The position numbers and the translations under genes are program-made. A stretch of DNA of 64,000 nt, from assembly GCA_024229275.1 (NCBI GenBank), contig JAAESQ010000672.1, positions 163 to 64,162 on the forward strand, written 5' to 3'. This DNA is from a bacterium (GTDB taxonomy: Bacteria > Acidobacteriota > Thermoanaerobaculia > Thermoanaerobaculales > Sulfomarinibacteraceae). Below the pieces are notes generated by a model. It was not told the origin of the DNA. It saw only the letters and a program-made list of their open reading frames with translations, and did no database searches. Shown piece by piece: positions 12,501 to 31,374 of the stretch (the stretch's first letter is position 1; every line of letters begins with the position of its first letter).

Positions 12501-12948
12501 GCCCGAGCTGCAATGCCTGAGTTCGGTGAAGTGTGGACCGAATGGCGTCATTTCCGCACTGGCCGCTCCTGGACCACCTCCCTCACAGTGGATGGACAAA
12601 CCCCTGCGGAGCGCATGGCTGGCGTCGCCACTCGCCATTGACGCCGGCTTCCAATTGATGTTGTTGTGGGGCTTTCAGCAGCAAAACGCAGGATCGCTCC
12701 CCAGCCGAGTTGGTGAGTACCGTCAGTTCAAGCGTTCATTCCCAAAAACAGGTGTACGCGTTGTCGTTCATATCACTGAGCACGATGAACACCGTTCGGT
12801 CGCACGGATCGAGTTCACAAATCCAACATCCGGCGAACTTGTCGCCAGGATGACTGATTGCGAATGCGTAATCGACGCGTCGCTGAATGAGGCGTTCAGG
12901 CGCAACACGCTTCGTCTGGAATCAATTAGCCAAGCCGGATCCAGATAG
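6508..12948 (+). CDS. pfaA: PfaA-like iterative type I PKS/PUFA synthase: KS-MAT-ACPx3-KR-DH
   Basis: KS DAACASS/EAHGTGT/GHAKAAAG; AT GHSYG and AFHS; three LGIDSIKRVEI ACPs; KR GGARGVT with YSVAN; C-terminal hot-dog DH (LFHGP); overlaps pfaD stop. Confidence 0.95.
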   Translation: MKLIESDHTKGPDQRLVSEPIAIIGIGCLFPKAADLRAYWANIVSGVDAITDVPETHWRRSDYYAADPKAQDRTTATRGGFLPPIDFDPLEFGVQPKVIEATDSSQLLGMYAAGRALKNAGYGPDTQFNRDRVSVLLGVTGALELTTTLGARLGHPRWRDALMDAGVDDGTAEDVISRISESYVPWQENSFPGLLGNVVAGRISNYLDLGGTNCVVDAACASSLSALHLAVMELQTGRSDMVVSGGVDSFNDIFMYTCFSKTHALSPSGDARPFDADGDGRIVGEGIGLIVLKRLQDAERDNDRIYAVIRSIGTSSDGKGNAIYAPSAEGQKKALRDAYERAGVTPDTVELVEAHGTGTKVGDAVELSALKDVYGDAPSGPWCAVGSVKSQIGHAKAAAGAAGIIKVAMALHHKVLPPTIKVEVPIDELTQKGAPFYVNSAARPWLPNADHPRRAAVSAFGFGGSNFHCVLEEHCDEKKAAAWDGNVELVAFSADGIEGLKDALREIAKEASWEDFARCAAGTRLRFDSGRSHRLLLVATPDCDRPARFLKAATMLDEQADKMAWSTPDGTWYGRGDRPGKLAFVFPGQGAQYVGMCRDLACRFPEFLQALTFADAASDGLTDAMYPPAAWDAETKAAQDATLRDTRTAQPAIGAISSGALRLLARFGVAPDAVAGHSYGELVALNAAGRLDADALRRLSKLRGALMHVDEGDKGGMIAVTSSPAMAETVIQEAGLNLVIANKNAPEQVVLSGGSEEIQKAKEAFVERDIRCTVLDVSAAFHSEYVADAAEPLLEALINTKISPATIPVFANTTAEEYPLQPGDAREILAFQLARPVEYVELIENVYAAGVRTFLEVGPGARQTGLIANILAGRNHSALALDSSSGKRSGVVDFARSLAQLAALGHTVDLSCWNEGCADAEVRKPKLVVPISGANYAAPREKRPPAPKPTPGATRSTECVSEVAPAAAQAIQTVQANIIALQKMQEQTARLHQQFLDGQQASARALSEMLGGRLSTVPDAEPLPVVASEATGVLERAPESPEPEPIPTPAAETSMIETILLGTVADKTGYPVDMLELDMSLDSDLGIDSIKRVEILSDLQEQLPEAPTIEAHHLGELQTLRQIVDHLAAGVTVSQQPAASAPVPTADEGPSQIESILLGTVADKTGYPVDMLELDMSLDSDLGIDSIKRVEILSDLQEQLPEAPTIEAHHLGELQTLRQIVDHLAAGVTVSQQPGAPAPILTANGEPSHIESILLGTVADKTGYPVDMLELDMSLDSDLGIDSIKRVEILSDLQEQLPEAPTIESHHLGELQTLRHIVDHLTHVTILPTVASEPEPKPVREVPTSNKTVERLVLSIEPMELDSNRELANIDKSAPIWITNDGAGLAVAIQSHLIDLGYSTELIAIDRENLLSPPTELAGLLIVAPPEGSDDAFLSDAFRVLQQAEVGLRGTGAGAGAVFATVSRLDGCFGLGDGASNWNPICGGLAGLSKTARLEWPDVRCVALDVGDDFPGAEQAAEAVVAELFVTGSAEVGLSNGRRCGLRLDPNPLPTEQIAEDELPVKAGDVVVVSGGARGVTAEVAATLGEATQATLVLLGRSLEPHDEPDWLASLTGQAEIKRAIVQNDSANITPKELQQQYQAVKANREIVRNIERMTVAGAKVKYFSVDLRDAEAVATVIAHARQEFGPIKGIIHGAGVLADRLIADKTMEQFAHVYSTKVGGLRSLLTATEVDDLRFMVLFSSSTGRFGRTGQIDYSVANEVLNRTAQSESRRRPNCRVVAVNWGPWDGGMVTPALKGVFEAEGIALIDREAGSQYLLGEIANPRGPVEVVLMGGPLPVKTDAVTESPKTLKLPETLDKAFELELNVRSHPFLKSHVLNGHTALPAAMTIDWLAHGAMHANLGLRFHGLNELRVFKGVTIEGNETAALRILAGPALQKGETYAVPVEMRGTVSGNPDRLFASAEVLLAASLPQGTAAIDDTAGHPYPDDDIYGSLLFHGPELQCLSSVKCGPNGVISALAAPGPPPSQWMDKPLRSAWLASPLAIDAGFQLMLLWGFQQQNAGSLPSRVGEYRQFKRSFPKTGVRVVVHITEHDEHRSVARIEFTNPTSGELVARMTDCECVIDASLNEAFRRNTLRLESISQAGSR
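9673..10470 (+). repeat. Three near-identical tandem ACP-coding units, 291-bp period
   Basis: Units begin at 9673, 9964 and 10255 with nearly identical DNA. Confidence 0.92.
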
Positions 12949-12949
12949 G

Positions 12950-15900
12950 ATGAGCGGCCATCGGTCCGTTGCCATCGTCGGCATCGGAGGAGTATTCCCC
13001 GAAGCGCCAGATCCGCAGACCCTATGGCGGAACATACTGAGCCGAACGAGCGCCGCTCGCGAGGTTCCATCGGGCCGATGGGAGCTTTCGCCGGAAGACG
13101 CCTATGACCCGCACCCGGCCATGCCGGACAAGGTCAGCTCGAAGCGGGCGTGCTTCGTTGATCCGTCGTCTTTCTCGATTGACACGACCCAACTCAATCT
13201 CTCGACTGAGCTTCTTGACGAACTCGATCCGCTCTTCCACCTGCTTCTCTATGCAGGCCAACAAGCCTTCGAGGACGCTGGCGCAGACGGGTGGGATCGT
13301 CGTCGGATCGGAGCAATCGTCGGGAATCTGGTTCTGCCGACAGATGCCTCTGCTGCACTTGCCCACGAAACGCTAGGACGAACCTTCGAGGAGATCGTAC
13401 GTCCTGATAGACCCTTGCAGGTACACCAAACACATCCACTGAACCGATATGTGGCCGGGTTGCCCGCGGGAATCCTGTCAAAAGCCCTGGAACTCGGAGG
13501 GGGCTGCCACACACTCGACGCAGCGTGTGCATCTTCGCTGTACGCGTTGAAGCTCGCAATCGATGAATTGACCTCACACCGAGCCGACGCCATGCTCGCA
13601 GGAGGCGTCTCACGGCCGTCTTCGCTCTATACGCAGATGGGCTTCTCCCAATTGACGGCGGTTTCTCCGTCGGGCACACCGTCACCGTTCGACGTCGATG
13701 GTGACGGACTCGTCGTCGGCGAAGGCGCCGGAGTATTCGTGCTCAAGCGAACAGAAGATGCTGTGCGCGACGGCGACCACATCTACGGTGTCATCCGCGG
13801 CATAGGGCTATCAAACGACGTAGGCGGTCGTTTATTGGCGCCGACCTCCGAAGGACAGCTTCGCGCGATGCGCGCTGCCTATAGACAGGCCGGTTGGAAT
13901 CCTACTGATGTCGATCTGGTCGAGTGCCACGCCACCGGAATTCCGATGGGCGATTCGGTTGAAATCGAGAGCCTTAAAGCCCTGTGGCTATGCGAGGACG
14001 GCACAAACAAACAGAGCGCGTATCCATGGAAGCCAGGCCAGTGCGTGATTGGATCGGTCAAGTCAAACGTTGGCCATCTGTTGACAGCTGCGGCCTCGGC
14101 AGCGTTGACCAAAGTGCTTTTCGCCCTGAAGGAAGAAACGCTGCCTCCGGCTGCGAACTTCACTCGAGCACATGAGGGTCTCGGCCTGGATGAGAGCCCT
14201 TTCCGCGTGCTGAAAGCCGGCGAGGTATGGGCGAAGCGCGACGACGCCACACCCCGAAGAGCCGCGATCAGTGCCTTCGGATTCGGCGGTATCAACGCTC
14301 ACGCACTGGTCGAGGAATGGCAGGTTCCTGGATCAAAACAGATCGCCGTGGAAGTAGTTCCGGCTACAGCGGCGGACGTAGCCATAGTTGGTCTGGATGC
14401 ACACTTCGGCCATTGGAAGGGACTGAAAGCCTTCCAGGAGCGAGTGCTCGGCGGCAGGTCCGATGAGGATTACTCTGAGGCCGGGCGATGCTGGGGAGTT
14501 GAGAGAAGTGCGTGGTTCAGTGAAGAAGGGCCTAGCGATCAGACTTTGTCGGGCCGGCGCATCAACAGCCTTTATGTGCCTCTCGATCGCTTCCGAATCC
14601 CTCCGAAAGAACTCAAGGAGATGCTGCCGCAGCAGCTATTGATGCTTGAAGTTGCATCCGGCGCTTGGCACGACGCCCAACTCGATGATGAAAGTGATAA
14701 CTCTGCGGGTGTTTTCATCGGGCTGGGATTCGACCTCAACGCAACAAACTTCCATCTCCGCTGGACGATGCCCAACAACGTACGTCGCTGGAGTCACGAT
14801 CTTTGCAGTGACGAGCTTGCTGACTGGACGTTTGCCCTGCGCGAAGCCGCGGGGCCGCCGCTGACGGCGAATCGAACGATGGGCGCTCTCGGCAGCGTTG
14901 TTGCCAGTCGCATTGCCCGCGAGCTTCGCCTTGGAGGCCCGAGCTTCACCATATCGAGTGAAGAGACCTCCGGCATCCATGCGCTCCGGGTGGCGGTCCA
15001 GGCACTGACAGATGGAGACATCGACGTCGCCCTCGCCGGGGCCGTTGATTTGGCTGGAGACATCCGAGCCGTCCTTTCGTCTCACGTGAGTAGGCCGTTC
15101 TCGGCATCCGGCACAGCTCGGCCGTTCGACGTATCAGCCGACGGTACATCTCTCGGCGAAGGCGCGGCAGCCCTCGTTCTCAAGCGGCTCGAAGATGCAC
15201 TTGCTGACGGCGATCGAGTCTATGGAGTCATTAAGGGAATCGGTAGCGCATCGGGAGGTGCGGCTGAGGCGCCATGTCCCGACGCCGAGACCAGCATGAA
15301 AGCGATGGAACGCGCCTACTCCCAGGCGCGGATCGATCCGGCGACAATCGGCTACATCGTTACAAACGGCAGTGGTTGCCCCACTGAAGATGCTGCAGAG
15401 GCCGAAGCTCTTGCAGCGTTCTTCCGATTTGATGATGGCCAGACCTGCGCGTTGGGTAGCGCGAAGAGCGACGTTGGCCACGCGGGAGCTGCGTCAGGCT
15501 TGGCGTCGGTCGTCAAGGCGTGTTTGAGCCTGTACCAGGAGATCATTCCGCCGCTGCGCGGCTTTGAGAATCCGAGATCCGAGTTCCTCGTCGGTGACTG
15601 CTCGTTCTTCATGCCCTCATCGCCGAGGTTCTGGCTCCATGATAGTGGGAACGGGCCGCGACGAGCCGCAGCTCACACGTTCAGCATCGACGGCAACTGT
15701 GCGCATGTTGTGCTCGAAGGCCTCGAGTCCGAACACCAGTCGAAGCGCATCTTGCCTGCGACAGCTGCCTCAATCGAACACTCGAAACGCCGACCGCTGG
15801 GGGCTCCCAACGAGGCCTTGTTTGTAGTCTCGGGCGATACTCATCCCCAGCTCATCGACGGGTTGACCGAATTGGCCGAGTTTGCCGGAATTGATTCCCA

Positions 15901-18900
15901 CTCCTCGCATGACGCAGTCGGCAACCTGGCCCGCCGGTGGTGGCGGCGCCGAGGGGCTGATGTCGGCCACGATCTCGCTGTGGCACTCATCGCTAGGAAC
16001 ACGACCGAGCTGATCGAACAGGCAAATTTCGCGCGCGAGTCTATTTCGCGATCACCAAACGACCGGATAAGCGGCGCTGACCCAAAGCCGTTTGCGCGCG
16101 ATCGGGTTTTCTACAGCGCCAAACCATTTGGGCGTAGTACCGACCCCTCCGGCCAACTCGCGTTCGTGTTTCCCGGCTCGGGCAATCAATATGCTGACAT
16201 GGGCCGCGATTTGTTTGTGCGATGGCCCGAAACACTACGCCAACAGCAAGCCGAGAATCTGCGTCTGGCAGGCCAGTTTCGGCCGGATCGTTTTTGGAAC
16301 CATGATGCGTGGACAGAAGAAACTCTGAACGAGACGCTTGCCGACCACAATGCGATGATTCTCGGACAAGTGGCGCTGGGCACGGCCGTGAGCCAGCTCA
16401 TGCAAAGCTTCGGTGTCTCACCCGACGCCGTGATTGGCTACAGCCTTGGTGAAACGGCCGGACTTTTCTCTTTGCGTGCCTGGACCAATCGCGACGAGAT
16501 GCTCCAGCGCATCGAATCGTCGACCCTGTTCACCGACGAGCTTGCCGGCGACTTCAACGCTGCTCGCAGAACATGGAACTTGCCACCCAACGAAATCGTG
16601 GACTGGGTTCTCGGTGTGATAGACCGGCCAATCTCAGTGCTGAAGCGCGCACTCAAGGACCGCAAGAGGGCCTATGCTCTCATCGCCAACACTCCGCACG
16701 AAAGCGTTGTTGGCGGCGCGCGGGGGGTCGTCAAGGATCTTGTTAACGAACTCAAGTGCGAGTTCATCCCCGTCAAGGGAGTCACCGCAGCCCACTGCGA
16801 GATTGTGAAGGCGGTCGAACGGCCGTACCGTGATCTCCATGTTTTTGAAGTGACGCCACCCGAGGGAGTCGAGTTCTACAGCGGTGCTTGGGCTAGGCCC
16901 TATCAGGTGACGAGCGACAGTGCGGCCGACGCGATCCTCGCCCACGCCCTTCACGGTGTGGACTACTGCAAGACGATCGAAGCGGCCTACAAACGGGGTG
17001 TGCGGATATTTCTCGAACTCGGGCCAGGAGCGTCGTGTAGCCGCATGATCAGCAGGATCCTCGACGATCGTCCTCACGTTGCGAGGTCGGTCTGTATGTC
17101 CGACCGCGATGCCACATCGCTCATCCTTCGCGGGCTGGGCCAACTCGTTGCTGAGCGCGTCGAGGTCGATCTTGACTCGCTCTACTCAGACCATGAGCCG
17201 CTTGAATCCTGCGACCAGACAAATGCCTCGCCCACACTGAGCGTGCCCATCGGCGGCGATCCGTTCTGCGTACCGAAGCCGCCTGCGCCGGCCCAAACCA
17301 CGTCAGCCGAGAGCGTTCCCAATAAAGTGGCATCGGCGAAACTCCCTGACCTGCCAACAGTTGATCCGACATCTGTCGCATCAGACACAATGGCTCTTGT
17401 GAATCAGATTGCGCAGACCGAGATGGCGAGAGCCGACGCGCACGAGGCGTTTCTAAAGGCATCAGCCGAGATCGAAAAGGCGATGTTGGAGGCAGTCGCC
17501 ATCCAAAAGTCGATGCTTGGAGTACCCGGTGCGGATCTTTCGGATAGCTCCCTGCGGATGACTGAGGTGCAGTCCACTGCGTCGTCCGTCTTCCTCACGC
17601 GCGAGCAATGTATGGAGTTTGCCGTAGGCCGGGTCGGAAATGTCTTTGGGCCTGAGTTCGCAGAGGTCGATACGTATCCGACACGTGTGAGACTGCCTGA
17701 CGACCCGCTCATGTTGGTCCACCGAGTGATCGCAATCGAAGGCGAGCCAAAGTCGCTCGGCAGCGGTCGCATCGTCACTGAGCACGACGTCGCACCAGAT
17801 GTCTGGCATCTCGACGGTGGAAGCGCGCCGACCTGTATCGCAGTTGAAGCAGGTCAGGCCGACCTGATGTTGTCGGGCTATCTCGGCATCGATTTCAAGG
17901 GCCGAGGTCTGGCTGTGTATCGCCTGCTCGACGCCGACATCACCTTCCACCGTCATCTGCCCGTTCCGGGTGAGACCATCCGCTACGACATCCGAATCGA
18001 AGAGTTCTTCGTCCACAACGGCACCTGGTTCTTCCGCTTCCAGTACGACGGTATGGTCGCTGGCCAGCCGCTCATGACCATGCGGAACGGTTGCGCAGGC
18101 TTCTTCACCGAAGAGGAACTCGCAGCTGGGCGCGGCATCGTTGAGACAAAACTCGACACTGCTCCGACCGCCGGTAAAAGGCCCGACGATTGGGAGGATC
18201 TCGTTTCGATGGCTGTGGAGGCCTACGACGAAGAACAGCTCGATGCGCTCCGATCGGGCGATCTCGCCGCGTGCTTCGGTCCTCAGTTTGACGGGCTGAC
18301 GCTCGGGCCCAACCAGCGCCTACCGGGTGGCGACATGACGCTTGTTCACCGTGTGATCGAACTCGATCCGAGTGGTGGTCGCTTCGGCCTCGGTTGCATA
18401 CGTGCTGAAGCCGACATCCGCCCCGATGACTGGTTCCTCACCTGCCACTTCGTCGATGACAAAGTAATGCCCGGCACGTTGATGTTCGAGTGCTGCATGC
18501 ACACGATGAGGGTCTTTCTGCTGCGGATGGGTTGGATCACGGAAGATGAGAGCGGCGCTTACGAACCGATCTCGGGCGTCAAGAGTCGCCTGAAATGTAG
18601 AGGGCAAGTACTCGACACGACAGCCGTCGTCACCTATGAAGTCGCTATCAAAGAATTGGGCTACGGCCCCGAGCCATATGCGATAGCCGATGCCAAGATG
18701 TTCGCCGACGGCCGGCATATTGTCGGAATCGAAGATATGTCGATCCGCTTCACCGGTCTTAGCCGCGAGCAACTCACTGCGCTTTGGAGTAGCCGAGAAA
18801 GTGGGAGCGTTGAACCGAAGCCTGCGATCTACGATCGCGACAGCATCCTCGCATTCGCGGTCGGCAAACCGTCAGAGGCGTTCGGCGACAGGTACGAAGT

Positions 18901-19909
18901 TTTCGACAATGATCGCGTGATCGCACGGCTGCCCGGCCCTCCCTACGCTTTCATCGATCGCATCACCAGAGTGCAGGGCGAACCGTGGAATATGATCCCA
19001 GGCGGCGTGGCGGAGGCGCAGTACGAGATCCCACCAGATGCGTGGTACTTCGGCGCCAACCGTCAAGCCGACATGCCTTTCGCCGTGCTGCTCGAAGTTG
19101 CCCTCCAGCCGTGCGGTTGGCTCGCGGCATATGTCGGTTCGGCACTGACGAGCGACACCGATCTCAGCTTCCGCAACCTCGGTGGTGATGCCGTGCAATA
19201 CCTTCGGGTCCTGCTCGACACCGGTTTGTTGACCACCACCGCGAAGCTCACGAGCGTGTCGAACTCGGCCGGCATGATCATCCAGAACTACGATATGGAG
19301 ATTCAGTGTTCAACCGGAACCGTCTACAGAGGCAAGACCAGCTTTGGTTTCTTCTCGAAGGAGGCTCTTGCTCAGCAGGTTGGCGTTCAGGGCGCGCAAC
19401 GCTACCAACCGAGCAGTGACGAGATCGAACGTGGGAGAAGCTCCGACTACCCGATAAGCGCACCGTTTCCCGAGCAACAACTGCGCATGATCGAGAGCAT
19501 TGAACTGTTCGTTTCAGATGGCGGACCCAATGGGCTGGGCTTCATCCGTGGCATCAAGAAAGTCGATCCGGACGAGTGGTTCTTTAAGGCACATTTTCAC
19601 CAGGATCCCGTCATGCCGGGTTCGCTCGGTCTTGAAGCATTCAATCAACTGCTCAAAGTCGCTGCGTGCGATCGCTGGGGGACTGCCACTGACACCGAGA
19701 TGACGACCGTTGCCGTAGGAGAGGGCCACACGTGGGCCTATCGGGGCCAAGTAGTTCCATCCAACGGGAAGGTGACCGTGGAGGCAACCGTTACGTCGAT
19801 AGACGACAAACGGCGAATGATTCGTGCCGATGGTTTCTTGGTCGTCGACGGCAAGGTGATCTACAAGATGACGGACTTCACACTCGAGATGCGCGTGGTC
19901 GGCAGATGA
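12950..19909 (+). CDS. pfaBC: PfaBC fusion (Pfa3-like): KS-CLF-AT-FabA-type DH domains
   Basis: KS DAACASS/ECHATG/GHLLTAAA; second KS lacks the catalytic Cys (SSEETSG, chain-length factor); AT GYSLG; two FabA motifs CHFVDDKVMPG and AHFHQDPVMPGSLG; starts 1 nt after pfaA stop. Confidence 0.93.
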   Translation: MSGHRSVAIVGIGGVFPEAPDPQTLWRNILSRTSAAREVPSGRWELSPEDAYDPHPAMPDKVSSKRACFVDPSSFSIDTTQLNLSTELLDELDPLFHLLLYAGQQAFEDAGADGWDRRRIGAIVGNLVLPTDASAALAHETLGRTFEEIVRPDRPLQVHQTHPLNRYVAGLPAGILSKALELGGGCHTLDAACASSLYALKLAIDELTSHRADAMLAGGVSRPSSLYTQMGFSQLTAVSPSGTPSPFDVDGDGLVVGEGAGVFVLKRTEDAVRDGDHIYGVIRGIGLSNDVGGRLLAPTSEGQLRAMRAAYRQAGWNPTDVDLVECHATGIPMGDSVEIESLKALWLCEDGTNKQSAYPWKPGQCVIGSVKSNVGHLLTAAASAALTKVLFALKEETLPPAANFTRAHEGLGLDESPFRVLKAGEVWAKRDDATPRRAAISAFGFGGINAHALVEEWQVPGSKQIAVEVVPATAADVAIVGLDAHFGHWKGLKAFQERVLGGRSDEDYSEAGRCWGVERSAWFSEEGPSDQTLSGRRINSLYVPLDRFRIPPKELKEMLPQQLLMLEVASGAWHDAQLDDESDNSAGVFIGLGFDLNATNFHLRWTMPNNVRRWSHDLCSDELADWTFALREAAGPPLTANRTMGALGSVVASRIARELRLGGPSFTISSEETSGIHALRVAVQALTDGDIDVALAGAVDLAGDIRAVLSSHVSRPFSASGTARPFDVSADGTSLGEGAAALVLKRLEDALADGDRVYGVIKGIGSASGGAAEAPCPDAETSMKAMERAYSQARIDPATIGYIVTNGSGCPTEDAAEAEALAAFFRFDDGQTCALGSAKSDVGHAGAASGLASVVKACLSLYQEIIPPLRGFENPRSEFLVGDCSFFMPSSPRFWLHDSGNGPRRAAAHTFSIDGNCAHVVLEGLESEHQSKRILPATAASIEHSKRRPLGAPNEALFVVSGDTHPQLIDGLTELAEFAGIDSHSSHDAVGNLARRWWRRRGADVGHDLAVALIARNTTELIEQANFARESISRSPNDRISGADPKPFARDRVFYSAKPFGRSTDPSGQLAFVFPGSGNQYADMGRDLFVRWPETLRQQQAENLRLAGQFRPDRFWNHDAWTEETLNETLADHNAMILGQVALGTAVSQLMQSFGVSPDAVIGYSLGETAGLFSLRAWTNRDEMLQRIESSTLFTDELAGDFNAARRTWNLPPNEIVDWVLGVIDRPISVLKRALKDRKRAYALIANTPHESVVGGARGVVKDLVNELKCEFIPVKGVTAAHCEIVKAVERPYRDLHVFEVTPPEGVEFYSGAWARPYQVTSDSAADAILAHALHGVDYCKTIEAAYKRGVRIFLELGPGASCSRMISRILDDRPHVARSVCMSDRDATSLILRGLGQLVAERVEVDLDSLYSDHEPLESCDQTNASPTLSVPIGGDPFCVPKPPAPAQTTSAESVPNKVASAKLPDLPTVDPTSVASDTMALVNQIAQTEMARADAHEAFLKASAEIEKAMLEAVAIQKSMLGVPGADLSDSSLRMTEVQSTASSVFLTREQCMEFAVGRVGNVFGPEFAEVDTYPTRVRLPDDPLMLVHRVIAIEGEPKSLGSGRIVTEHDVAPDVWHLDGGSAPTCIAVEAGQADLMLSGYLGIDFKGRGLAVYRLLDADITFHRHLPVPGETIRYDIRIEEFFVHNGTWFFRFQYDGMVAGQPLMTMRNGCAGFFTEEELAAGRGIVETKLDTAPTAGKRPDDWEDLVSMAVEAYDEEQLDALRSGDLAACFGPQFDGLTLGPNQRLPGGDMTLVHRVIELDPSGGRFGLGCIRAEADIRPDDWFLTCHFVDDKVMPGTLMFECCMHTMRVFLLRMGWITEDESGAYEPISGVKSRLKCRGQVLDTTAVVTYEVAIKELGYGPEPYAIADAKMFADGRHIVGIEDMSIRFTGLSREQLTALWSSRESGSVEPKPAIYDRDSILAFAVGKPSEAFGDRYEVFDNDRVIARLPGPPYAFIDRITRVQGEPWNMIPGGVAEAQYEIPPDAWYFGANRQADMPFAVLLEVALQPCGWLAAYVGSALTSDTDLSFRNLGGDAVQYLRVLLDTGLLTTTAKLTSVSNSAGMIIQNYDMEIQCSTGTVYRGKTSFGFFSKEALAQQVGVQGAQRYQPSSDEIERGRSSDYPISAPFPEQQLRMIESIELFVSDGGPNGLGFIRGIKKVDPDEWFFKAHFHQDPVMPGSLGLEAFNQLLKVAACDRWGTATDTEMTTVAVGEGHTWAYRGQVVPSNGKVTVEATVTSIDDKRRMIRADGFLVVDGKVIYKMTDFTLEMRVVGR

Positions 19910-20955
19910 AGTATTCGAAGGTCTTCATCGAAGCTATCGCCTATGAACTCGCTCCGGTCGTCGTGAGTTCGGAGGAACTCGAGGAGCGTCTCGAGCCCCT
20001 CTACCAAGAACTACACATGTCGGGGGGGCAACTCGAGGCTCTGACCGGTATCGAGGAGCGCCGCTGGTGGCACGAGGGCTACGCCCTGTCGGATGGAGCG
20101 ATTGCAGCGGCCGGCAAAGCGATCAACGCTTCTCGTGTGGGTGTCGATGAGATCGAGGCTGTAGTGTATACCGGCGTCGGTCGCGAGCATTTTGAGCCGG
20201 CAACAGCCTGCCGCGTGGCCGACGAGTTGGGTGTCGCTCCAACTGCTGTCATTCACGACATCAGCAATGCCTGCCTTGGGATGCTCAGCGGAATAGTCGA
20301 TGTTGCCAACCGAATCGAGCTGGGCCAACTGCGCGCCGGCCTTGTTGTTTCGTGTGAAACAGCCAGAGACATTGTCGAGGAGGCCATCCGCTGCATGTTG
20401 GAAAGCCAGACAATGGAGCTTTTCGCTTCGTCAGTGGCGACATTGACGGGAGGTTCCGGCGCAGCGGCGATTTTGTTGACCGACGGATCGTTTGGCCCAC
20501 CGATTTCGAAGAGAAAGAAACTCCTCGGCGGCTGCATTCAGGCCGCCCCGAAACACCATGGACTCTGCCGGTGGGGGATGACACCCAGAGGCCTCCGAAC
20601 TTTCAAAGAAACGATGAGAACTGACGCGCCTTCGGTGATGAAATATGGCGTTGAATTGGGCGTTCGAACATGGCTCGCGTTTCTCGACGAACTTGGTTGG
20701 ACGCCTGACGATGTCGACAAAGTAATCTGCCACCAAGTCGGATCCTCGAATCAAACAGCGGTCCTCGAAGCGATGGACATTCCGCTCGAGAAGGACTTCG
20801 CGACGTACCCCTACCTCGGAAACATCGGTACTGTATCGCTGCCGCTTACAGCTGCTTTGGCCGACGAACGCGGCTTCCTTCGCCCTGGTGACCGCGTTGG
20901 TTTTCTCGGAATCGGTAGCGGACTCAACTGCATGATGCTGGGCGTGGAATGGTAA
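19906..20955 (+). CDS. oleA: OleA-type thiolase-fold condensing enzyme (3-oxoacyl-ACP synthase III family)
   Basis: FEPATA (OleA catalytic Glu region), SNACLG, TLTGGSGA, CHQVG, LGNIG, GIGSGLNC; ATGA overlap with pfaBC. Confidence 0.85.
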   Translation: MKYSKVFIEAIAYELAPVVVSSEELEERLEPLYQELHMSGGQLEALTGIEERRWWHEGYALSDGAIAAAGKAINASRVGVDEIEAVVYTGVGREHFEPATACRVADELGVAPTAVIHDISNACLGMLSGIVDVANRIELGQLRAGLVVSCETARDIVEEAIRCMLESQTMELFASSVATLTGGSGAAAILLTDGSFGPPISKRKKLLGGCIQAAPKHHGLCRWGMTPRGLRTFKETMRTDAPSVMKYGVELGVRTWLAFLDELGWTPDDVDKVICHQVGSSNQTAVLEAMDIPLEKDFATYPYLGNIGTVSLPLTAALADERGFLRPGDRVGFLGIGSGLNCMMLGVEW

Positions 20956-20996
20956 AAGAACGGCTTCTCTTGTCGAAGCCGAGCTGATCCATCAAC

Positions 20997-21027
20997 AGAA
21001 AGCGGGACACCCGAACGGGCGTCCCGC
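20997..21027. terminator. GC-rich hairpin between the convergent oleA and selenoprotein genes
   Basis: GCGGGACACCCG-AA-CGGGCGTCCCGC; followed by TTTCTGTT on the minus strand. Confidence 0.65.
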
Positions 21028-21048
21028 GAATGATCACTCTGAAATGTC

Positions 21049-22386
21049 CTAGCTGTCGAGTAGCGTCAGGAGTTCACCTTCGAGCTTCTCCGCGTCCCCG
21101 TCATTCCAGCCGAGGTGGTGGTACATAACTCGACCCTGGCGATCAATGAGGAACGAGGTTGGAAAGCCCTCTACCCTGAATACCTGGCTGACGACGTCGG
21201 CCTCGTCTTCACCCGTTTCAACGCACGTGAATCCAAGTCCTTCTTGTTGGATGAACTCCATCGCCCTTTCAGTCTCTCGCCTAGACTCGATTGCGATGAC
21301 CTCAAAGCCCTGATCTCGATACTTCTCCCAGAGTGACTGCAGTCGTGGCAACTCCACGAGGCAGCCACCTCAACCGGGGTTCCAGAACGCGATCATGATG
21401 ACCTTATCTGCCATCGAGGAAAGGCTCACCATTTCGCCGGCATAGTTGGGAAGTGTGAAATCATCGACCTTCTTCGCGATCTGCTGTCGAGCCGTCGACA
21501 GATAAGCGTCAAATCCATCCACCCTACCGTTGATCCCGATATACGCCTGCTCGAGATCATGCAGTGCGGTCTCGGAGTGTCCCATCACTGCATCGTGGAC
21601 AAGAAGTTTGGCTGCGCGCTCAGGTCTTCCGAGCAGGAGTTCGGCCTGGCCCCAGTACCGGTTGATCGGTGTTTCCGGCACACCGACATAGTTCGTCGAC
21701 GGCTCGATGGTCGCCGCATGTTCGAAAACCCGCTGCGCCTCTTCGAGTTGCCCGAGATGAGTCAAAGCTCCTCCCTGATAGGCAAGGGACCAAGCTCTGC
21801 GGCGATTGACCGCATGCTTGACTTCCCCATCGCTGAAGTCGTCCTCGGGGTAGTCGCCACGGAAGGTTTCTTCGGTTGCGAATAAAACCATCGCGGTTGA
21901 GTGTTCGAGCATCAACTGCCACGCGTCTGCTTTTGCCGCAGCTTCAACAATATCGAGATGATCGACGAATCGGAGTGTGCGGTGCGCTGCGATCTCTTCG
22001 GCAATCGAACGCAGATCTATTGGATTTCCCTCACTGGCGGCCAGTTCGTGGACCAGGAGGCCAACCTCGAAGCGTAGCTCGGGGTTTTGAATCTGACGCC
22101 AGACGTTCTCTGCGAATTCTCGCGTTCCCCCGAGATCATCGAGCTTGTGCCGGCGAAAGTAGATCGCGTCACGCAAGGCGCTCACACCCTCAGAGTAATC
22201 GGGATATTCGCCCACAAAACTCTCGAGGATCAGCAACTGCTCAGCAGGATCTTCGAGCGGAGCCAGCGTCTCGCGCATGTTCTTGTATGCGGTCTCAACT
22301 GGCAATGGGGTAACGCCCTCCGGGGTGCAGTGAGTTGTTGCTAGAACTCCGAATACTAGCGCTATCAAGGGGCCGCGAATATGCAT
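21049..22386 (-). CDS. Selenocysteine-containing TlpA/redoxin lipoprotein with helical TPR-like N-terminal region (UGA at 21370-21372 read as Sec; about 445 aa)
   Basis: ORFs 21370..22419 and 21049..21357 are in frame across a single TGA: IAFWNPG-U-GGC-LVELPRLQ...GFPTSFLIDRQG is a thioredoxin fold with UxxC and cis-Pro motif; lipoprotein-like signal ending ATTHC; RBS before ATG 22386. Confidence 0.85.
21333..21368 (-). promoter_or_regulatory. Bacterial SECIS-like hairpin
   Basis: mRNA: UGA-G-GUGGCUGC-C-UCGUGG-AGUUG-CCACGA-CU-GCAGUCAC; 8-bp and 6-bp stems, apical loop begins 16 nt after UGA and has G at position 2. Confidence 0.8.
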
Positions 22387-22515
22387 CACACCTTCCCTCC
22401 CGGACAATTCATCGTCCACCTAGATATGACACCGGCAGGCGGCAAAACGTTGCCAAATTCTTTTGCGGGCTCGATGGTTTCTGCGCTCTGATGCCTAAGA
22501 ATTTCGCAGGGTCTC

Positions 22516-22557
22516 TTGACCGAGGTCAAGGTGGCGAGGTGTCTGTGCACATACGAT
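22516..22557 (+). promoter_or_regulatory. FNR/CRP-family box TTGAC-N4-GTCAA with TACGAT -10 element (class II geometry)
   Basis: Palindrome 22516-22529 is centred at -41.5 if TACGAT 22552-22557 is the -10 hexamer. Confidence 0.6.
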
Positions 22558-22598
22558 AGGGGATGGAAGAAGGCTCTAGTCGTAGGGAGGGCAGGTTG

Positions 22599-23825
22599 AT
22601 GTTGAGACATACACATATCTTTGTAATAGTGCCGGTCCTAGTACTCATGGCCGGGGCGGCGTTTGCGGTGGAGTCCGAGTGTGAGGATTGCCACGCCAAG
22701 CTGACTCCGATGATCGTCAAAGATTTCAACCGAGGAGTCATGTCCGAATCCATGGGCTGCGCCGACTGTCATGGCGAGGGTCATACAGGGATGGAAGACG
22801 CCGACAAGGCGGAGTTGCCCACGATTGCAACCTGCCAGGCGTGCCACGAAGACCAAGCGCAGCGCTACATTGCTGGTAAGCACGCCAAGGGCTCGTTGGC
22901 GGTGCACGCTCTGCCGTTCTCGCATGGCCAGCCCGATGCCTTCATCGCGGGTCAACGCGGTTGTGGTGGATGCCACACCATGGGTCTTGCCACACAGGAG
23001 GATCGAAAGACTCCCTCTAGGGAGTATTACAAGTACGGCATGGACTGCCAGAACTGCCATACGCGACATGCCTTTTCGGTCGCGGAGGCCCGTGAGCCTG
23101 AGGCCTGTCAGACCTGCCACCAGGGCTTCGACCACCCGCAATGGGAAATGTGGTCGACTTCCAAGCATGGTGTGGCCTACCTCCTGGATCGCGAGGCAAA
23201 ACGTGGTCCGACATGCCAGACCTGTCACATGCCGGATGGTGACCACTTCGTGCGCACGCCTTGGGGCTTCCTTGGCGTTCGGCTTCCAGAAGACGACGAG
23301 GAGTGGATGGGCTATCGCACCACAATTCTCATGGGGCTTGGCGTGCTTGACGCCGAAGGACAGCCGACGCCGCTGCTCGAGATCGTCAAGATCGGCGATC
23401 TCGCACGCCTCGATGCCGAGACTTTCAATGCAGAGCGTAAGCGCATCACCGACACTTGTGGACAATGCCATTCGAAGAGCTTCTGGGAAGCCAACATCAA
23501 CGCTGCCGACGAAATGCTGAAAGAGGCCGACAAGATCTTTGCCGAAGCCATCAATATCGTTGCCGGCTTGCGAAAAGACGGCGTGATCAAGGTCAAGGAG
23601 GGCGAAGGTGTATATCCGCAGTTGCTTTCCTTCTACGAAGTCGATACCGCTGTAGAACAGCACCTCTACGACATATTCATGGATTACCGTATGAAAACCT
23701 TCCAGGGCGCTTTCCATATCAACCCTGACTACACGACCTGGTATGGCTACGCCAAGATGAAACAGGCGCTTGCCGAAATCAAAGAACTGGACCATCAGAT
23801 GAGGGCGGCGGCCTCTGACGGCTGA
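22599..23825 (+). CDS. Periplasmic octaheme cytochrome c, hydroxylamine oxidoreductase (HAO) family
   Basis: Signal peptide (AFA); 8 CxxCH motifs; CHTRHAFS, GFDHPQWE, HINPDY..WYG motifs; GGGAGG RBS. Confidence 0.85.
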   Translation: MLRHTHIFVIVPVLVLMAGAAFAVESECEDCHAKLTPMIVKDFNRGVMSESMGCADCHGEGHTGMEDADKAELPTIATCQACHEDQAQRYIAGKHAKGSLAVHALPFSHGQPDAFIAGQRGCGGCHTMGLATQEDRKTPSREYYKYGMDCQNCHTRHAFSVAEAREPEACQTCHQGFDHPQWEMWSTSKHGVAYLLDREAKRGPTCQTCHMPDGDHFVRTPWGFLGVRLPEDDEEWMGYRTTILMGLGVLDAEGQPTPLLEIVKIGDLARLDAETFNAERKRITDTCGQCHSKSFWEANINAADEMLKEADKIFAEAINIVAGLRKDGVIKVKEGEGVYPQLLSFYEVDTAVEQHLYDIFMDYRMKTFQGAFHINPDYTTWYGYAKMKQALAEIKELDHQMRAAASDG

Positions 23826-23943: not shown

Positions 23944-24194
23944 AGGGAGGGGGTGACAGCGGGAGGGTGCGTAGGCGCGCGACTTTCGCGCGCCCCCAGC
24001 GCCAATGAACTTGGGAGAGGCGTTTGGTCGCTGTTCGCCTCGGGGGTTGCGGACAGAGGCAGAAGCAGATGGCAGATTCAGGGTCCAGAATGCACAAGTG
24101 TCCCCGGTCCCAGATTAGGCAATGCTGAAGACCCCGCAGTATTCAAGAAACGTCACAGCTATAATTCCCTGTGCGAGGGATCGCTGGGGGGATA

Positions 24195-26234
24195 TTGGCT
24201 GAGGGGACCTGGTACACAACAGGTTGTCCGCGCAACTGCTACAGCACGTGCAGTATGCGGGTGGAGGTGCGAGACGGTCAGCTTCGGCGAATCGAGGCGA
24301 ATCCGGACAATCTTGCAACTCCTGAGGGTGTTTGCCTGAAAGGCCTGGCCTACATTGAACGAGTCAACGATCCGGATCGACTCCTGCATCCGCTGGGTCG
24401 CAACTCCAGCGGTCGGCTGCAGCAAATCTCCTGGGATGAAGCCCTAGATCGAATTTGCGCCAAGTTGGCGGCTCTGCAGGCCGAACCTCAATCGGTGATG
24501 GCCTACACCGGCAGTGGCACCAAGGGACTTCTCAACGATGTCACCTGGGCCTTCTGGCGCCTGTACGGGGGATACACGACGAGCTACGGTGACCTCTGCT
24601 GGCCAGCCGGACTCGAAGCTACTCGATTGACGCTCGGCGACAATCGGCACTCGGCGCCTTGGGATCTCGCCAACGCCAGGCTGATCGTGTTCTGGGGCAA
24701 GAATCCAGCCGAAACCAATATTCATCAGATGCGCTTTGTTGAGCAGGCGGTTGAGAACGGTGCAAAGCTCGTCGTCATAGACCCGAGACGCACGGAGACA
24801 TCCCAAGGCGCGGACCTTCTGATTCAACCAAAACCCGGAACGGATGGTGCACTGGCGCTCGGCATCGCCAACCAACTCTTTCAGGAGAACCTAGTACAAC
24901 GCGATTTTGTCGAGCGGCACGTGCATGGGCACGAAGCATTTGCCGAACTCGCTGCGGAGTTTCCACTCGAGCGAGCCGCCGAGATCACTGGCGTACCAGC
25001 GCCGTTTATCCGCGAGCTAGCAGATCTTCTGGGCTCCGTGGAACCGGCCACAATCTGCGCCGGTTTCGGTATGCAGCGTTATACCAACAGTGGCCAGACC
25101 ATGCGTGCCATTCTCGCCCTACTCGCTCTGACCGGAAATATCGGTCGCGCCGGCGCGGGATGGGTCTACGCCAATCTCCAAAGCCAAGTGTTTGCACCGG
25201 TTAAGGACCCATTTGCATTTTATCCACCGGAACAAGCGGACGGCGTCGCCCGAGTCAGTGTTTCAACCTCACGCCTTGGTGAGGACATGATGCGCCAGGC
25301 AGACCCCCGCCTGCGCATGATCTGGGTAGAGCGTGGAAATCCCTTGACCCAGAACCCGCACACCGCTCGTGTGGCCGAGGCATTTCGTAGCCTTGAGTTT
25401 CGGGTCGTGGTCGATCAGTTCCTCACCGACACGGCGCGCGAGGCTGACATCGTGCTCCCGGCCAAGACGATGTTCGAGCAGAGCGATGTGATCAACGCCT
25501 ACTGGCATCCGTACATTCAGCTCAAACAGAAGATGATCGAACCACCGGGTGAGGTGAAACCAGAGAGTGAGGTCTACTGGTTGTTGGCCGAGCGGCTTGG
25601 ATTCGAGCCAGGAGAAGTGGCTTCGAAGATCCCTGGGGCAAGCGAGGCTGAAGTCGATGCGTACCTGGAGCGCCGGCTGCAAGCGATTCCAGGACTGACA
25701 CTTGATCGCCTGCGACAGGGTCCGATCGAAGTCCCCGGACACGAGGTCGTGGCGTGGTCCGACCTGGAATTCGCGACACCGACAGGCAAGATAGAGCTCG
25801 CTTCGACCGAAGCCTCGACGCGTTGGGGAGTCGCCGAACTGCCGCGCTGGGAGCCTCCAGAGGAGGTTGAGTCCAGCACATCTCCCATCAGGTTGCTCAC
25901 ACCCAACACAAAGAACCGAATCCACAGTCAGTTTGGTAATTTGCCGTCGATTCGCGAACTCGAGGACGAGGCTGTCATACACGTGTCTCCTGCCGATGCG
26001 GAATCACGAGGCATTGAAAGTGGCGACAGAGTCCAGGTAATCAACGATCGTGGCGCACTCGAGTTCACCGTAGCTCTCGATGTAAGCCTTCGATCCGGAT
26101 GTGCCTGGGTGACGAACGGCTGGTGGCGTCGGCGGGGTGGTTCGGTGAACGAGCTCTCACTGGGGCGAGAAACCGACATGGGTCATGGCGCGGCATTTCA
26201 CGACAATCTCGTCGAGATCGTGAAACTGCCGTGA
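24195..26234 (+). CDS. Molybdopterin (bis-MGD) oxidoreductase catalytic subunit, no Tat signal
   Basis: CPRNCYSTC...C 4Fe-4S motif, WGKNP, IDPRRTET, PGTDGALA, DQFLTDTA.ADIVLPA, C-terminal MGD-binding domain; TATAAT at 24160-24165. Confidence 0.9.
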   Translation: MAEGTWYTTGCPRNCYSTCSMRVEVRDGQLRRIEANPDNLATPEGVCLKGLAYIERVNDPDRLLHPLGRNSSGRLQQISWDEALDRICAKLAALQAEPQSVMAYTGSGTKGLLNDVTWAFWRLYGGYTTSYGDLCWPAGLEATRLTLGDNRHSAPWDLANARLIVFWGKNPAETNIHQMRFVEQAVENGAKLVVIDPRRTETSQGADLLIQPKPGTDGALALGIANQLFQENLVQRDFVERHVHGHEAFAELAAEFPLERAAEITGVPAPFIRELADLLGSVEPATICAGFGMQRYTNSGQTMRAILALLALTGNIGRAGAGWVYANLQSQVFAPVKDPFAFYPPEQADGVARVSVSTSRLGEDMMRQADPRLRMIWVERGNPLTQNPHTARVAEAFRSLEFRVVVDQFLTDTAREADIVLPAKTMFEQSDVINAYWHPYIQLKQKMIEPPGEVKPESEVYWLLAERLGFEPGEVASKIPGASEAEVDAYLERRLQAIPGLTLDRLRQGPIEVPGHEVVAWSDLEFATPTGKIELASTEASTRWGVAELPRWEPPEEVESSTSPIRLLTPNTKNRIHSQFGNLPSIRELEDEAVIHVSPADAESRGIESGDRVQVINDRGALEFTVALDVSLRSGCAWVTNGWWRRRGGSVNELSLGRETDMGHGAAFHDNLVEIVKLP

Positions 26235-27562
26235 GCCGTCACAGCTTTACCCTAGACCTCAACCGGTGCACTGGATGTTCTGCGTGCCGTCTCGCGTGTA
26301 CGATCGAAAACCAGATCGAGCCTGCGCGGGCGTGGCGAACGGTCTACACCTTCAATAGCACGAACGATGCAGCGATTGGCGTTCACCATCTCTCACTAGC
26401 TTGCAATCACTGCGAACAGCCATCCTGTCTCAAAGCCTGTCCGGCAAAAGCATATCGGCGAGATGAAGAGACCGGCGCCGTGCTGTTGGATCGTGAACTC
26501 TGTCTGGGCTGTCGCTACTGCAGCTGGGTCTGTCCCTACGGTGCGCCGCACTGGGACGCCGAGTGCGGGGTGATGGACAAATGCACGTTCTGCGTCGACC
26601 GCTTACGGGAGGGGAAAGATCCCGCATGCGTCGCCGCGTGTCCGGTCGATGCGTTGGGAGTTGAAGACTGGATCTGCAGGGAGTCAGAACAGAATCGATG
26701 CGCTGGATTCCCGGACACAGGAATCGGACCCGCGATCGCGATTTGCCAGCGGCGTAGCGGCGTCGAGCCTCCGCGGATGAGTTCGAAGCATGGACGCCTT
26801 CAATCCAAAGCGAGACAGCCTCTCCCTGGACTATTTCAGCTTGTTTCGGAGTGGAGTTTGCTTGTATTTTCGCTGGTGGCCATCCTGCTGGTTGGAGCCT
26901 TCACATCATCTGTGGCGTCGGGATCAAGTGTTTGGCTCATTCCTTTTGCCCTCGCTGGAATTGCGGCTCTCGGTATCAGCATTTCCCATCTCGGCAATCC
27001 GCGGAATCTCCTTCGAGCGGGCCTCAATTTGAGAACGTCTTGGGTGAGCCGCGAAATTGTCCTGTTCTCACTCTTCTTCTGGGGAGCGATTGGACTCGCG
27101 GCTGTTCCAAGCGTGCATGCGACGGCGAGATGGGTTCTGGCGGCGGTTGGGATCGCTTCGCTGGTTGCGATGGACATGGTCTACCAGGTGAGAGGTCAGC
27201 GGATTCGCGCCGTGCCGCACAGCGCGATGGCTACGCTGAGCTTCGTTCTGGTCATAGGCGTACTCACGGCTTCTTGGCCGCTGGTCTTTGCTGCGATCGG
27301 GGTCAAGGCCATCCTCTATGGCCTCCGCCGCGTGCACGGCCCGCGCGAAGGCTGGATTATGCGATCGTTTCTACCCATCCACCGAGTCGGTGTCGGATTC
27401 GTCGTGCCACTGGTTGTCTGGGGAGTGACGGCTCAGCTCCTGCATCCTATGGCGATCCTGGCTCTCGTCGTGGGGGAAGTTCTCGATCGCGCCGAGTTCT
27501 ACGCAGAGCTCCAGTTCCTCGAGCCAAACCTTCAGATCGAAAGAGATCTTAAAAAAACTTAG
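26231..27562 (+). CDS. Fused DmsB-like 4x[4Fe-4S] electron-transfer subunit and DmsC-like membrane anchor
   Basis: CTGCSAC, CNHCEQPSC..ACP, CLGCRYC..VCP, KCTFC..C..ACP, then multiple TM helices with SHLG and SWVSRE; GTGA overlap with upstream gene. Confidence 0.88.
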   Translation: MSRHSFTLDLNRCTGCSACRLACTIENQIEPARAWRTVYTFNSTNDAAIGVHHLSLACNHCEQPSCLKACPAKAYRRDEETGAVLLDRELCLGCRYCSWVCPYGAPHWDAECGVMDKCTFCVDRLREGKDPACVAACPVDALGVEDWICRESEQNRCAGFPDTGIGPAIAICQRRSGVEPPRMSSKHGRLQSKARQPLPGLFQLVSEWSLLVFSLVAILLVGAFTSSVASGSSVWLIPFALAGIAALGISISHLGNPRNLLRAGLNLRTSWVSREIVLFSLFFWGAIGLAAVPSVHATARWVLAAVGIASLVAMDMVYQVRGQRIRAVPHSAMATLSFVLVIGVLTASWPLVFAAIGVKAILYGLRRVHGPREGWIMRSFLPIHRVGVGFVVPLVVWGVTAQLLHPMAILALVVGEVLDRAEFYAELQFLEPNLQIERDLKKT

Positions 27563-30285: not shown

Positions 30286-31374
30286 CTACGGCCAGCGATA
30301 GGTGAACGCGTTGATGTTCATCCCGGCGCCGACCGATGCGAAGACAACGACGTCGTCCGTAGTCAGTTTCTGGCCATCCATCTGACCACGCACGATAAGG
30401 TCTAACATCGTCGGTACCGTCGCTACCGAGCTGTTGCCAAGCCACGAAATGGTCATCGGCATTATGCGCTCCGGTATTTCACGCACATCGTAGAGACGGA
30501 AAAGTCGCTTGAGAATAGCTTCGTCCATCTTCGCGTTGGCTTGGTGCAACAAAACCCGACTGACGTTGCTGAGGGTCAATTCGGCCTTGTCGAGGCAGTC
30601 CTTCACAAGGCCCGGGACGTTCGTCAGGGCGTAGTTGTAAAGCTTGCGGCCAAACATTTTGAGAAACAGAGTGTCTTCCGCATACTCGGGATCGTAGGAC
30701 GTTCCCATCCACAATAGCTTTGCGTGGTCGATCGTATCCGAGCGCGCAGCGTGGGAGAGGATACCGATGTTCTGACTTGATTCCTGTGCTTCGAGCACCA
30801 CGGCGCCCGCACCATCCGAGTAGATCATGCTGTCTCGATCATGCGGATCCGAGACTCGCGAAAGTGTCTCCGCACCGATCACCAGTGCTGATGAGGCATC
30901 ACCTGACCGGAGAAAGTAGTCTGCCTGAATCACGCCTTGCACCCACCCCGGACATCCGAACGGCAAGTCGTAGGCGACACAGTACGGATTGGCGATGCCG
31001 AGCTTCTGCTTGACCCTGGCTGCAAGACTCGGGACGAAGTCCGAACGCCGGTTATCGGCCCGTACGTCACCGAAGTTGTGCGCAACGATAATGTAGTCAA
31101 GCTCTTCACGATCAAGGCCGGATGACTCAATAGCCTCTTCGGCCGCGAGGTGCGCTATGTCAGAAGTCAGGAGATCGTCCGACACATAGCGGCGCTCCCT
31201 GATCTCCGTAATTTCTTCAAACTTCTGGGTGATGCGTTCGTTGTCACCCTCAAACGGTTGATCATAGTCAGCAAAGAATCGGTTTTTGTGAAAACTGCTG
31301 TTCGGTACTGTCTCCGTCGGGATATAACTCCCGGTCCCTTTGATCACAGTACGTCGGGTCCCTTGTTGATTCAC
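30286..31374 (-). CDS. fabH: 3-oxoacyl-ACP synthase III (FabH family)
   Basis: GTGSYIP, PFGCPGW (catalytic Cys), HQAN, GNSSVAT, SVGAG; GGAGG RBS. Confidence 0.88.
   Translation of the reverse strand: MNQQGTRRTVIKGTGSYIPTETVPNSSFHKNRFFADYDQPFEGDNERITQKFEEITEIRERRYVSDDLLTSDIAHLAAEEAIESSGLDREELDYIIVAHNFGDVRADNRRSDFVPSLAARVKQKLGIANPYCVAYDLPFGCPGWVQGVIQADYFLRSGDASSALVIGAETLSRVSDPHDRDSMIYSDGAGAVVLEAQESSQNIGILSHAARSDTIDHAKLLWMGTSYDPEYAEDTLFLKMFGRKLYNYALTNVPGLVKDCLDKAELTLSNVSRVLLHQANAKMDEAILKRLFRLYDVREIPERIMPMTISWLGNSSVATVPTMLDLIVRGQMDGQKLTTDDVVVFASVGAGMNINAFTYRWP

Follow-up and report, generated by a model that had tools for sequence, protein, structure and literature searches.

A predicted lipid-anchored selenocysteine redoxin with a TPR-like helical domain, encoded across an in-frame UGA in Acidobacteriota

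ResA, CcmG (DsbE) and TlpA are CxxC reductases that act outside the cytoplasm in the maturation of cytochrome c and CuA. Here we describe a gene that very probably encodes a redoxin of 445 residues, predicted to be exported and lipid-anchored, which resembles these proteins but carries selenocysteine (Sec) in its active site. The gene lies on the minus strand, at 22386..21049, of a 64,000-nucleotide stretch of DNA (the window; contig JAAESQ010000672.1, positions 163 to 64,162) from assembly GCA_024229275.1, a member of the Sulfomarinibacteraceae in the Acidobacteriota. The window protein shares with the three reductases its fold (TMt ~0.9 to 3gl3 and 1st9), a predicted extracytoplasmic membrane tether and a presumed partner of the DsbD/CcdA type. 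It differs from them in having Sec for Cys, a G-G dipeptide in its motif, an extra helical domain of 275 residues and a putative lipid anchor instead of a transmembrane helix, and its scores fall far under the NCBIfam cut-offs.

Selenoproteins with a UxxC motif are already known in this fold. The available text of a 2026 review of the prokaryotic selenoproteome (PMC13188914) catalogues a Prx-like thiol:disulfide oxidoreductase (PF00578), a thiol:disulfide interchange protein (PF13098), a Redoxin family protein (PF08534) and a UGC-type TlpA family; some such families were introduced by PMC1088965 and PMC1794560, as far as the available parts of those papers tell. Like the window protein, the UxxC families are described there as having a thioredoxin fold, Sec as the first residue of UxxC, a bacterial selenocysteine insertion sequence (bSECIS) right after the UGA, and Cys homologues; the same Pfam families match. 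As TlpA, redoxin and Prx-like UxxC selenoproteins are in that catalogue, the window protein is of a known kind. Compared by descriptions only, it seems to depart from them in its TPR-like N-terminal domain, its putative lipoprotein signal and its origin in Acidobacteriota; the terms 'Acidobacteri', 'lipoprotein', 'periplasm', 'TPR' and 'signal peptide' are all absent from the text of the review that was available. According to the same text, Sec forms of nearly all selenoenzymes are rarer than the Cys forms, whereas the reverse holds among the close relatives of the window protein. What may be new is its layout as a two-domain lipoprotein, its taxonomic home and an almost exclusive use of Sec. 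The selenoproteome of a phylum that the available text of PMC13188914 leaves unmentioned would thereby gain a thiol-disulfide selenoenzyme predicted to be exported and membrane-anchored.

Two other groups come close. NF041054 (WAxxUGC) likewise resembles ResA/TlpA, contains Sec and has extra sequence at its N-terminus, but its motif is UGC rather than UGGC and the window protein scores 36 bits against a cut-off of 300, so it is a different family. Metagenomic proteins of the Cys type (for example P0028, P0033, P0044, P0019 and P0020) have the same layout of TPR plus redoxin, with CxxC and not UxxC; the Joint Genome Institute names for P0019 and P0020 are TPR repeat protein and thiol-disulfide isomerase. 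An earlier note on this DNA had suggested that the architecture may be undescribed. This holds only in part, as Cys forms with the same layout are public and UxxC selenoproteins of the TlpA and redoxin folds are catalogued. The literature listings gave no paper describing this TPR-like plus redoxin architecture in a selenoprotein, and our literature search found nothing on selenocysteine in Thermoanaerobaculia.

The gene is one frame of 445 codons, closed by a TAG at 21051-21049 and interrupted by a single in-frame TGA at codon 339 (21370..21372). Upstream of the TGA the open reading frame (ORF) 21370..22419(-) ends in ...KVIMIAFWNPG; beyond it the same frame resumes with GGCLVELPRLQSLWEKY... 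and continues to the TAG. The ATG at 22386 is the likely start codon, and 4 nt before it lies a purine-rich tract, GGGAGGGAAGG (22391..22401), which may serve as a Shine-Dalgarno sequence. The TGA falls at the first Cys of a thioredoxin-fold CxxC (FWNPG-U-GGC-LVELP), with C342 as the second, and the U-G-G-C motif covers 21361..21372. Three Pfam models match residues 315-445 of P0001 above their curated cut-offs: AhpC-TSA (62.6 bits, cut-off 26), Redoxin (50.6, cut-off 26.6) and Thioredoxin_8 (42.8, cut-off 27). These matches run across the TGA, which therefore occupies the place of the first CxxC Cys.

The ORF map and Pfam thus agree with the earlier note, which had seen two same-frame ORFs split by one TGA at this Cys and had predicted a protein of about 445 residues; U339 and C342 fall within exactly that number of codons, and orthologues are 440-445 residues long. 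The rest of the fold, which it had placed downstream (GFPTSFLID), is present and includes the cis-Pro, P409 in GFPTSF (codon 21160..21162), invariant in 19/19 orthologues. The region 22386..21049 is confirmed as one intact gene. Gene finders shorten it because an active-site residue is encoded by an in-frame TGA.

One line of evidence that this TGA is read as Sec is its conservation. Searched in six frames, 40 related genomes yielded an orthologue in 19 cases, and the window's assembly a second copy. Together with the window itself and 80 loci from a scan in which each GTDB species was represented by one genome, this gave 101 loci; some of these are one contig reached twice, and 87 distinct genes remain. 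The scan pattern starts at the second Cys, making the search independent of the Sec codon. TGA stands at the identical column in 101/101 loci, that is in all 20 of the relatives' set and 80/80 of the scan as well as the window, and each orthologue from the six-frame search has exactly one in-frame TGA. The consensus around it is FWFPT-U-G-G-C-R-V-E-L-P-R-L, the window copy belonging to a WNPx-U subgroup.

Conservation within the protein is highest over the 103-115 codons that follow the TGA. Pairwise differences there at codon positions 1, 2 and 3 are 0.25, 0.21 and 0.47 (49 distinct sequences, 104 codons), and the median dN/dS is 0.31 over 144 pairs of these sequences, with dS near saturation. 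C342 and P409 are invariant. To judge by these patterns, the stretch evolves as coding sequence. TGA also terminates this very gene in 29 of the 100 loci in which the gene end was reached, so TGA is no general sense codon in these organisms.

Sequencing reads count as no independent support. A contig from run X1 agrees with the window at the TGA, yet this DNA may itself derive from that contig. Pieces from run X2 reach the TGA with no difference listed, none of them spanning it by 31 letters on both sides. No RNA run is listed as containing this stretch, and two runs guessed to be RNA of the same sample gave nothing that matched it. One contig of the unrelated run X2 tracks the window from 21341 to the TGA (21372) and then encodes ...AFWFPT, and so comes from a relative or paralogue sharing the conserved SECIS segment.

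The second line of evidence is the RNA that follows the codon. We folded 66 nt around the UGA. A hairpin (21332..21369) begins 0-1 nt past the UGA, with a lower stem of 9 bp, a bulged C, an upper stem of 6 bp and a stability of -24.2 kcal/mol; upper stem and loop occupy 21343-21359. The 5-nt apical loop, AGUUG, starts 16 nt past the UGA, its second position being a G, as the earlier note had drawn it. The bSECIS model in the Fig. 2 legend of PMC13188914 asks for a loop of 3-9 nt, an upper stem of 4-16 bp, G at loop position 1 or 2, a UGA-to-loop distance of 16-37 nt and a minimum free energy of at most -7.5 kcal/mol, and the window hairpin lies within all of these constraints as the legend states them.

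The hairpin also covaries. In 20 sequences the covariation score was 0.118 against 0.070 for shuffles, 0/500 shuffles reaching it, and 3/12 pairs showed changes on both sides. All six upper-stem pairs are standard in 85/85 distinct 66-mers, with compensatory changes at 3/6 of them; in the lower stem conservation is weaker (56-100% paired). Val-GUG is perfectly linked with Pro-CCA (76 sequences) and Ala-GCG with Pro-CCG (9), a replacement change offset by a synonymous one. The window copy has a double change from G-C to U-A (Arg CGC to Leu CUC, paired with CGC to CGA), and one further sequence has a double change from C-G to U-A. For the loop Leu all 85 sequences use UUG (78) or UUA (7), two codons that account for 8.3% of the 4105 Leu codons in the rest of these genes (mean G+C 64%). 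The stem Pro codon is CCA in 76/85, against 12% elsewhere. Conservation and covariation across the loci mean that the hairpin is more than chance. An invariant hairpin with forced rare codons provides a clean natural case of RNA structure limiting codon choice within a coding sequence (CDS).

The machinery for decoding is present in the genome, as the earlier note's proposal needed. The window's assembly holds selB (355 bits), selA (482 bits) and selD (366 bits), all over their cut-offs, and a tRNA-Sec of 70.6 bits, which ARAGORN calls as tRNA-SeC (anticodon tca, i.e. UCA). We found selA over its cut-off in 39 of 41 genomes (the 40 relatives, sampled from the order, and the window's own). The co-occurrence is consistent with Sec use but, as these 41 include no contrast group lacking Sec, uninformative as a test. 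The selD locus (L010, G000:C999:11580-15506) itself has one in-frame TGA and so probably encodes a Sec-containing selenophosphate synthetase; C1047 carries a further fragment of selD. The tRNA-Sec gene (L016, G000:C773:17477-20571) has a divergent tRNA-Ala(GGC) gene about 200 bp away.

Relatives with Cys at the same column complete the case. Searching 1.84 billion representatives with a profile brought up 438 hits below 1e-30. Among the best 150, 122 stop at profile position 336 or 337, the residue preceding the TGA, and the other 28 go further. We fetched the 16 of these 28 that looked like two-domain proteins and left out the other 12, which are long multi-redoxin proteins. CxxC stands at the Sec column in 15 of the 16 fetched full-length relatives (CGPC, CIGC, CAFC and others), giving the family its Cys/Sec pair. 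The sixteenth, P0168 (453 aa), has S-Q-G-V-A in place of the U/CxxC motif and is presumably a redox-dead full-length relative. The column thus holds TGA in every locus or Cys in nearly every fetched full-length relative, and Trp, which would have spoken against the earlier note, in none. Among close relatives Sec forms far outnumber Cys forms. A quick tree pairs the window protein with the Cys form P0028 as its sister (SH-aLRT 99), inside a clade of Sec forms.

Taken together, the data strongly support the decoding of the UGA at 21372-21370 as Sec by SelB and a SECIS, in a TlpA-like redoxin. The replacement of the N-terminal, nucleophilic Cys of CxxC by Sec339 in a TlpA/ResA/DsbE-like domain appears equally well supported by the comparisons.

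The predicted protein has two domains. An AlphaFold2 model built with 19 orthologues (pLDDT 91.2, pTM 0.84) shows a disordered signal region followed by 16 helices (residues 30-303) and then a thioredoxin fold (311-444), and it bears out the helical N-terminal domain that the earlier note had proposed. The redoxin domain (residues 311-445) is encoded at 21052..21456. Its U339-C342 motif is at the N-terminus of the helix 340-359, U339 just ahead of the helix, and with Pfam matches over cut-off, (C/U)xxC at the N-terminus of helix 1 and a cis-Pro loop the domain has the features of a TlpA-like redoxin (cd02966). In Foldseek its nearest structures were DsbE from Chlorobium (3gl3) and ResA (1st9 and others), at TMt ~0.9, with StoA, the pneumococcal lipoprotein Etrx2 and similar proteins as further matches. 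The helical domain (21478..22299) modelled alone reached pLDDT 95.4, and Foldseek found no specific relative for it, just generic TPR solenoids at TM 0.3-0.48. Pfam TPR models came below cut-off (TPR_2 21.8 bits, cut-off 27; TPR_14 21.2 bits, cut-off 23.5), and the neighbours of the protein in a language-model atlas were TPR clusters only, with a recognition score below the usual level. The N-terminal ~275 residues thus look, from model and profiles, like a TPR-like helical domain.

The N-terminus, MHIRGPLIALVFGVLATTH followed by Cys20 (22327..22386), reads as a signal peptide with a Cys at the lipobox position. In orthologues the lipobox, tested against the pattern [LVI][ASTVI][GAS]C, is mostly canonical, L-[AG]-[AG]-C, e.g. 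LLGA-C or AIG-C.

Sequence features, read together with the established biology of TlpA/ResA/CcmG-type proteins, suggest how the protein might work. It would be exported through the Sec protein translocon and anchored by a lipid at Cys20, facing the periplasm. The TPR-like domain may then hold a protein substrate while the selenolate attacks a disulfide or an oxidised sulfur in it, with Cys342 resolving the selenenylsulfide. The oxidised U-x-x-C would be re-reduced by a membrane electron carrier of the DsbD/CcdA type; a DsbD_TM gene is present in the genome. With too little selenium or SelB, ribosomes would terminate at the UGA, leaving the 338-residue helical lipoprotein alone, the form listed in databases. 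Whether this amounts to a family absent from all catalogues, a near-obligate Sec protein combining a lipid-anchored, periplasmic TPR-like substrate cradle with a UxxC redoxin and using the UGA as a selenium-dependent switch between scaffold and enzyme, is a more speculative matter, and we put it forward as a tentative idea that is somewhat improbable as a whole.

Several observations weigh against a lipid-anchored Sec reductase at this locus. The assembly is a fragmented metagenome-assembled genome (MAG) of 8.65 Mb, split into 1695 contigs and 6.5% contaminated, and the sel genes sit on contigs other than the window's. Taken as a single sequence, the hairpin is unremarkable (z = -1.41), 17/200 shuffles being equally stable, and an Rfam scan of 20900-22600 at E <= 10 returned no SECIS family. 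A snoRNA, the sole Rfam match in that interval (E = 2.6), was taken as chance. The lipobox of the window copy, ATTH-C, has an atypical His at -1, which leaves the earlier note's lipoprotein claim partly upheld: the Cys at the lipobox position is invariant in 19/19 orthologues, but the box around it in the window copy is not typical. NCBIfam models score below their cut-offs, ResA (NF002854) at 72.2 against 170, TlpA (NF047696) at 45.8 against 230 and DsbE (TIGR00385) at 41.4 against 123, so orthology to a characterised reductase is unsupported. The window's neighbours recur in 0/100 other loci, and the neighbourhood is uninformative on function.

The main functional rival accepts the selenoprotein and makes it a periplasmic Sec peroxidase, reducing peroxides or sulfenic acids rather than protein disulfides. 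Its appeal lies in the best Pfam match, AhpC-TSA, and in the peroxide-reducing enzymes of which, by the available text of PMC13188914, Sec is typical. The peroxiredoxin motif PxxxTxxC/U is nevertheless absent from the orthologue alignment, where FWFP-T-U-G-G-C places Thr next to Sec (P-T-U-G-G-C). The nearest structures and NCBIfam models are DsbE, ResA and TlpA rather than peroxiredoxins, and a resolving Cys at CxxC spacing is the thioredoxin arrangement. We consider a peroxidase unlikely.

A role in cytochrome c maturation, with a CcmG/ResA-like apocytochrome reductase joined to a CcmI/CycH-like TPR chaperone, seems less likely still. CcmI has a TPR chaperone domain, ResA is the best NCBIfam match (72 bits), and the divergent neighbour in the window is a multihaem cytochrome c gene (22563-23825). 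That neighbour occurs in 0/100 other loci, however, and none of the loci was seen to have ccm or res genes next to it. The ResA, DsbE and TlpA models are well under their cut-offs, and the N-terminal domain has no specific structural match.

We regard it as very improbable that the TGA is a true stop and the product a 338-residue helical lipoprotein, with the redoxin part a decaying remnant or a separate gene. This is how gene finders call the gene; the 15 close database proteins of 302-339 residues and the 122 profile hits ending at the TGA column agree with such a call, and no start codon with an obvious ribosome site is found in the downstream part. Yet the downstream frame is open and conserved in 101/101 loci across several phyla, with coding-type substitution and an invariant catalytic Cys and cis-Pro. 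The codon, moreover, is always TGA and never TAA or TAG, the SECIS covaries, and full-length relatives containing Cys exist. Least credible of all is the reading of TGA as an ordinary amino acid such as Trp or Gly in a variant code, which would keep the frame open but is at odds with TGA terminating the same gene in 29/100 loci and bounding other ORFs of the window, with Cys at the column in relatives lacking the TGA, with the complete Sec system and with the structured element after the codon.

With the Sec redoxin as the preferred reading, the consequence for public databases is considerable. A word-indexed search returned 15 close proteins, the window's own included, all of 302-339 residues and covering the N-terminal 66-74% of the query. 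The earlier note had expected annotation pipelines to cut the gene, and these records, like the profile hits, end where it foresaw. A large family is thus stored publicly as hypothetical proteins of ~338 residues that lack the catalytic domain, the damage extending to at least 122 clusters at 50% identity. No NCBIfam model is able to mend this annotation; a family model with a Sec exception would fix hundreds of records.

By record title, the 80 scan loci are mostly from Acidobacteriota (Thermoanaerobaculia/Thermoanaerobaculales, Candidatus Sulfomarinibacteraceae and Holophagae). A few come from Latescibacterota, Krumholzibacteriia and one Fibrobacteraceae MAG, and single MAGs labelled Methylomirabilota and Chondromyces may be binning errors. 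Four MAGs (L044/L113, L070/L122, L063/L123 and L097/L101) and the window's own assembly have two copies of the gene. The window assembly's paralogue, L124 (G000:C134:2400-6100; match C134:3654-4886, minus), shows about 40% identity, has the FWFPT-U-GGC form of the motif and is closed by a TAA. A single in-frame TGA also occurs in each of several other redoxin-domain matches in related genomes, at G003:C14:3085-3378, G034:C10:95487-95873, G019:C2:1265747-1266025, G039:C39:17778-18152 and G030:C19:2935-3333. These may be further, different thioredoxin-fold selenoproteins of this order.

The neighbours of the gene in the window encode a KAS III, the multihaem cytochrome c, a molybdopterin oxidoreductase and an Fe-S protein. 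The cytochrome c gene (22563-23825(+), 420 aa) is divergent from the selenoprotein gene and is followed by the molybdopterin oxidoreductase (24171-26234(+), 687 aa), in which no in-frame TGA was seen, and a 4Fe-4S dicluster protein (26099-27562(+)). The three are likely to form a respiratory module. In other genomes the surroundings are different: a small arfB-like gene (RF-1 domain, peptidyl-tRNA hydrolase) lies directly downstream in 39/100 loci and an mtnA-like gene (IF-2B family) upstream in 39/100. Their recurrence probably reflects lineage synteny and no functional link, although a release-factor-like gene beside a gene that recodes UGA is curious.

Elsewhere in the window, two giant genes at 6508-12948(+) and 12887-19909(+) carry the domain sets KS-AT-ACP-KR and KS-KS-AT-FabA-FabA, and KAS III-like genes lie at 19732-20955(+) and 30286-31374(-). 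The giant genes have the layout of a polyketide system resembling polyunsaturated fatty acid (PUFA) synthases (pfaA/pfaC), as far as their predicted domains indicate.

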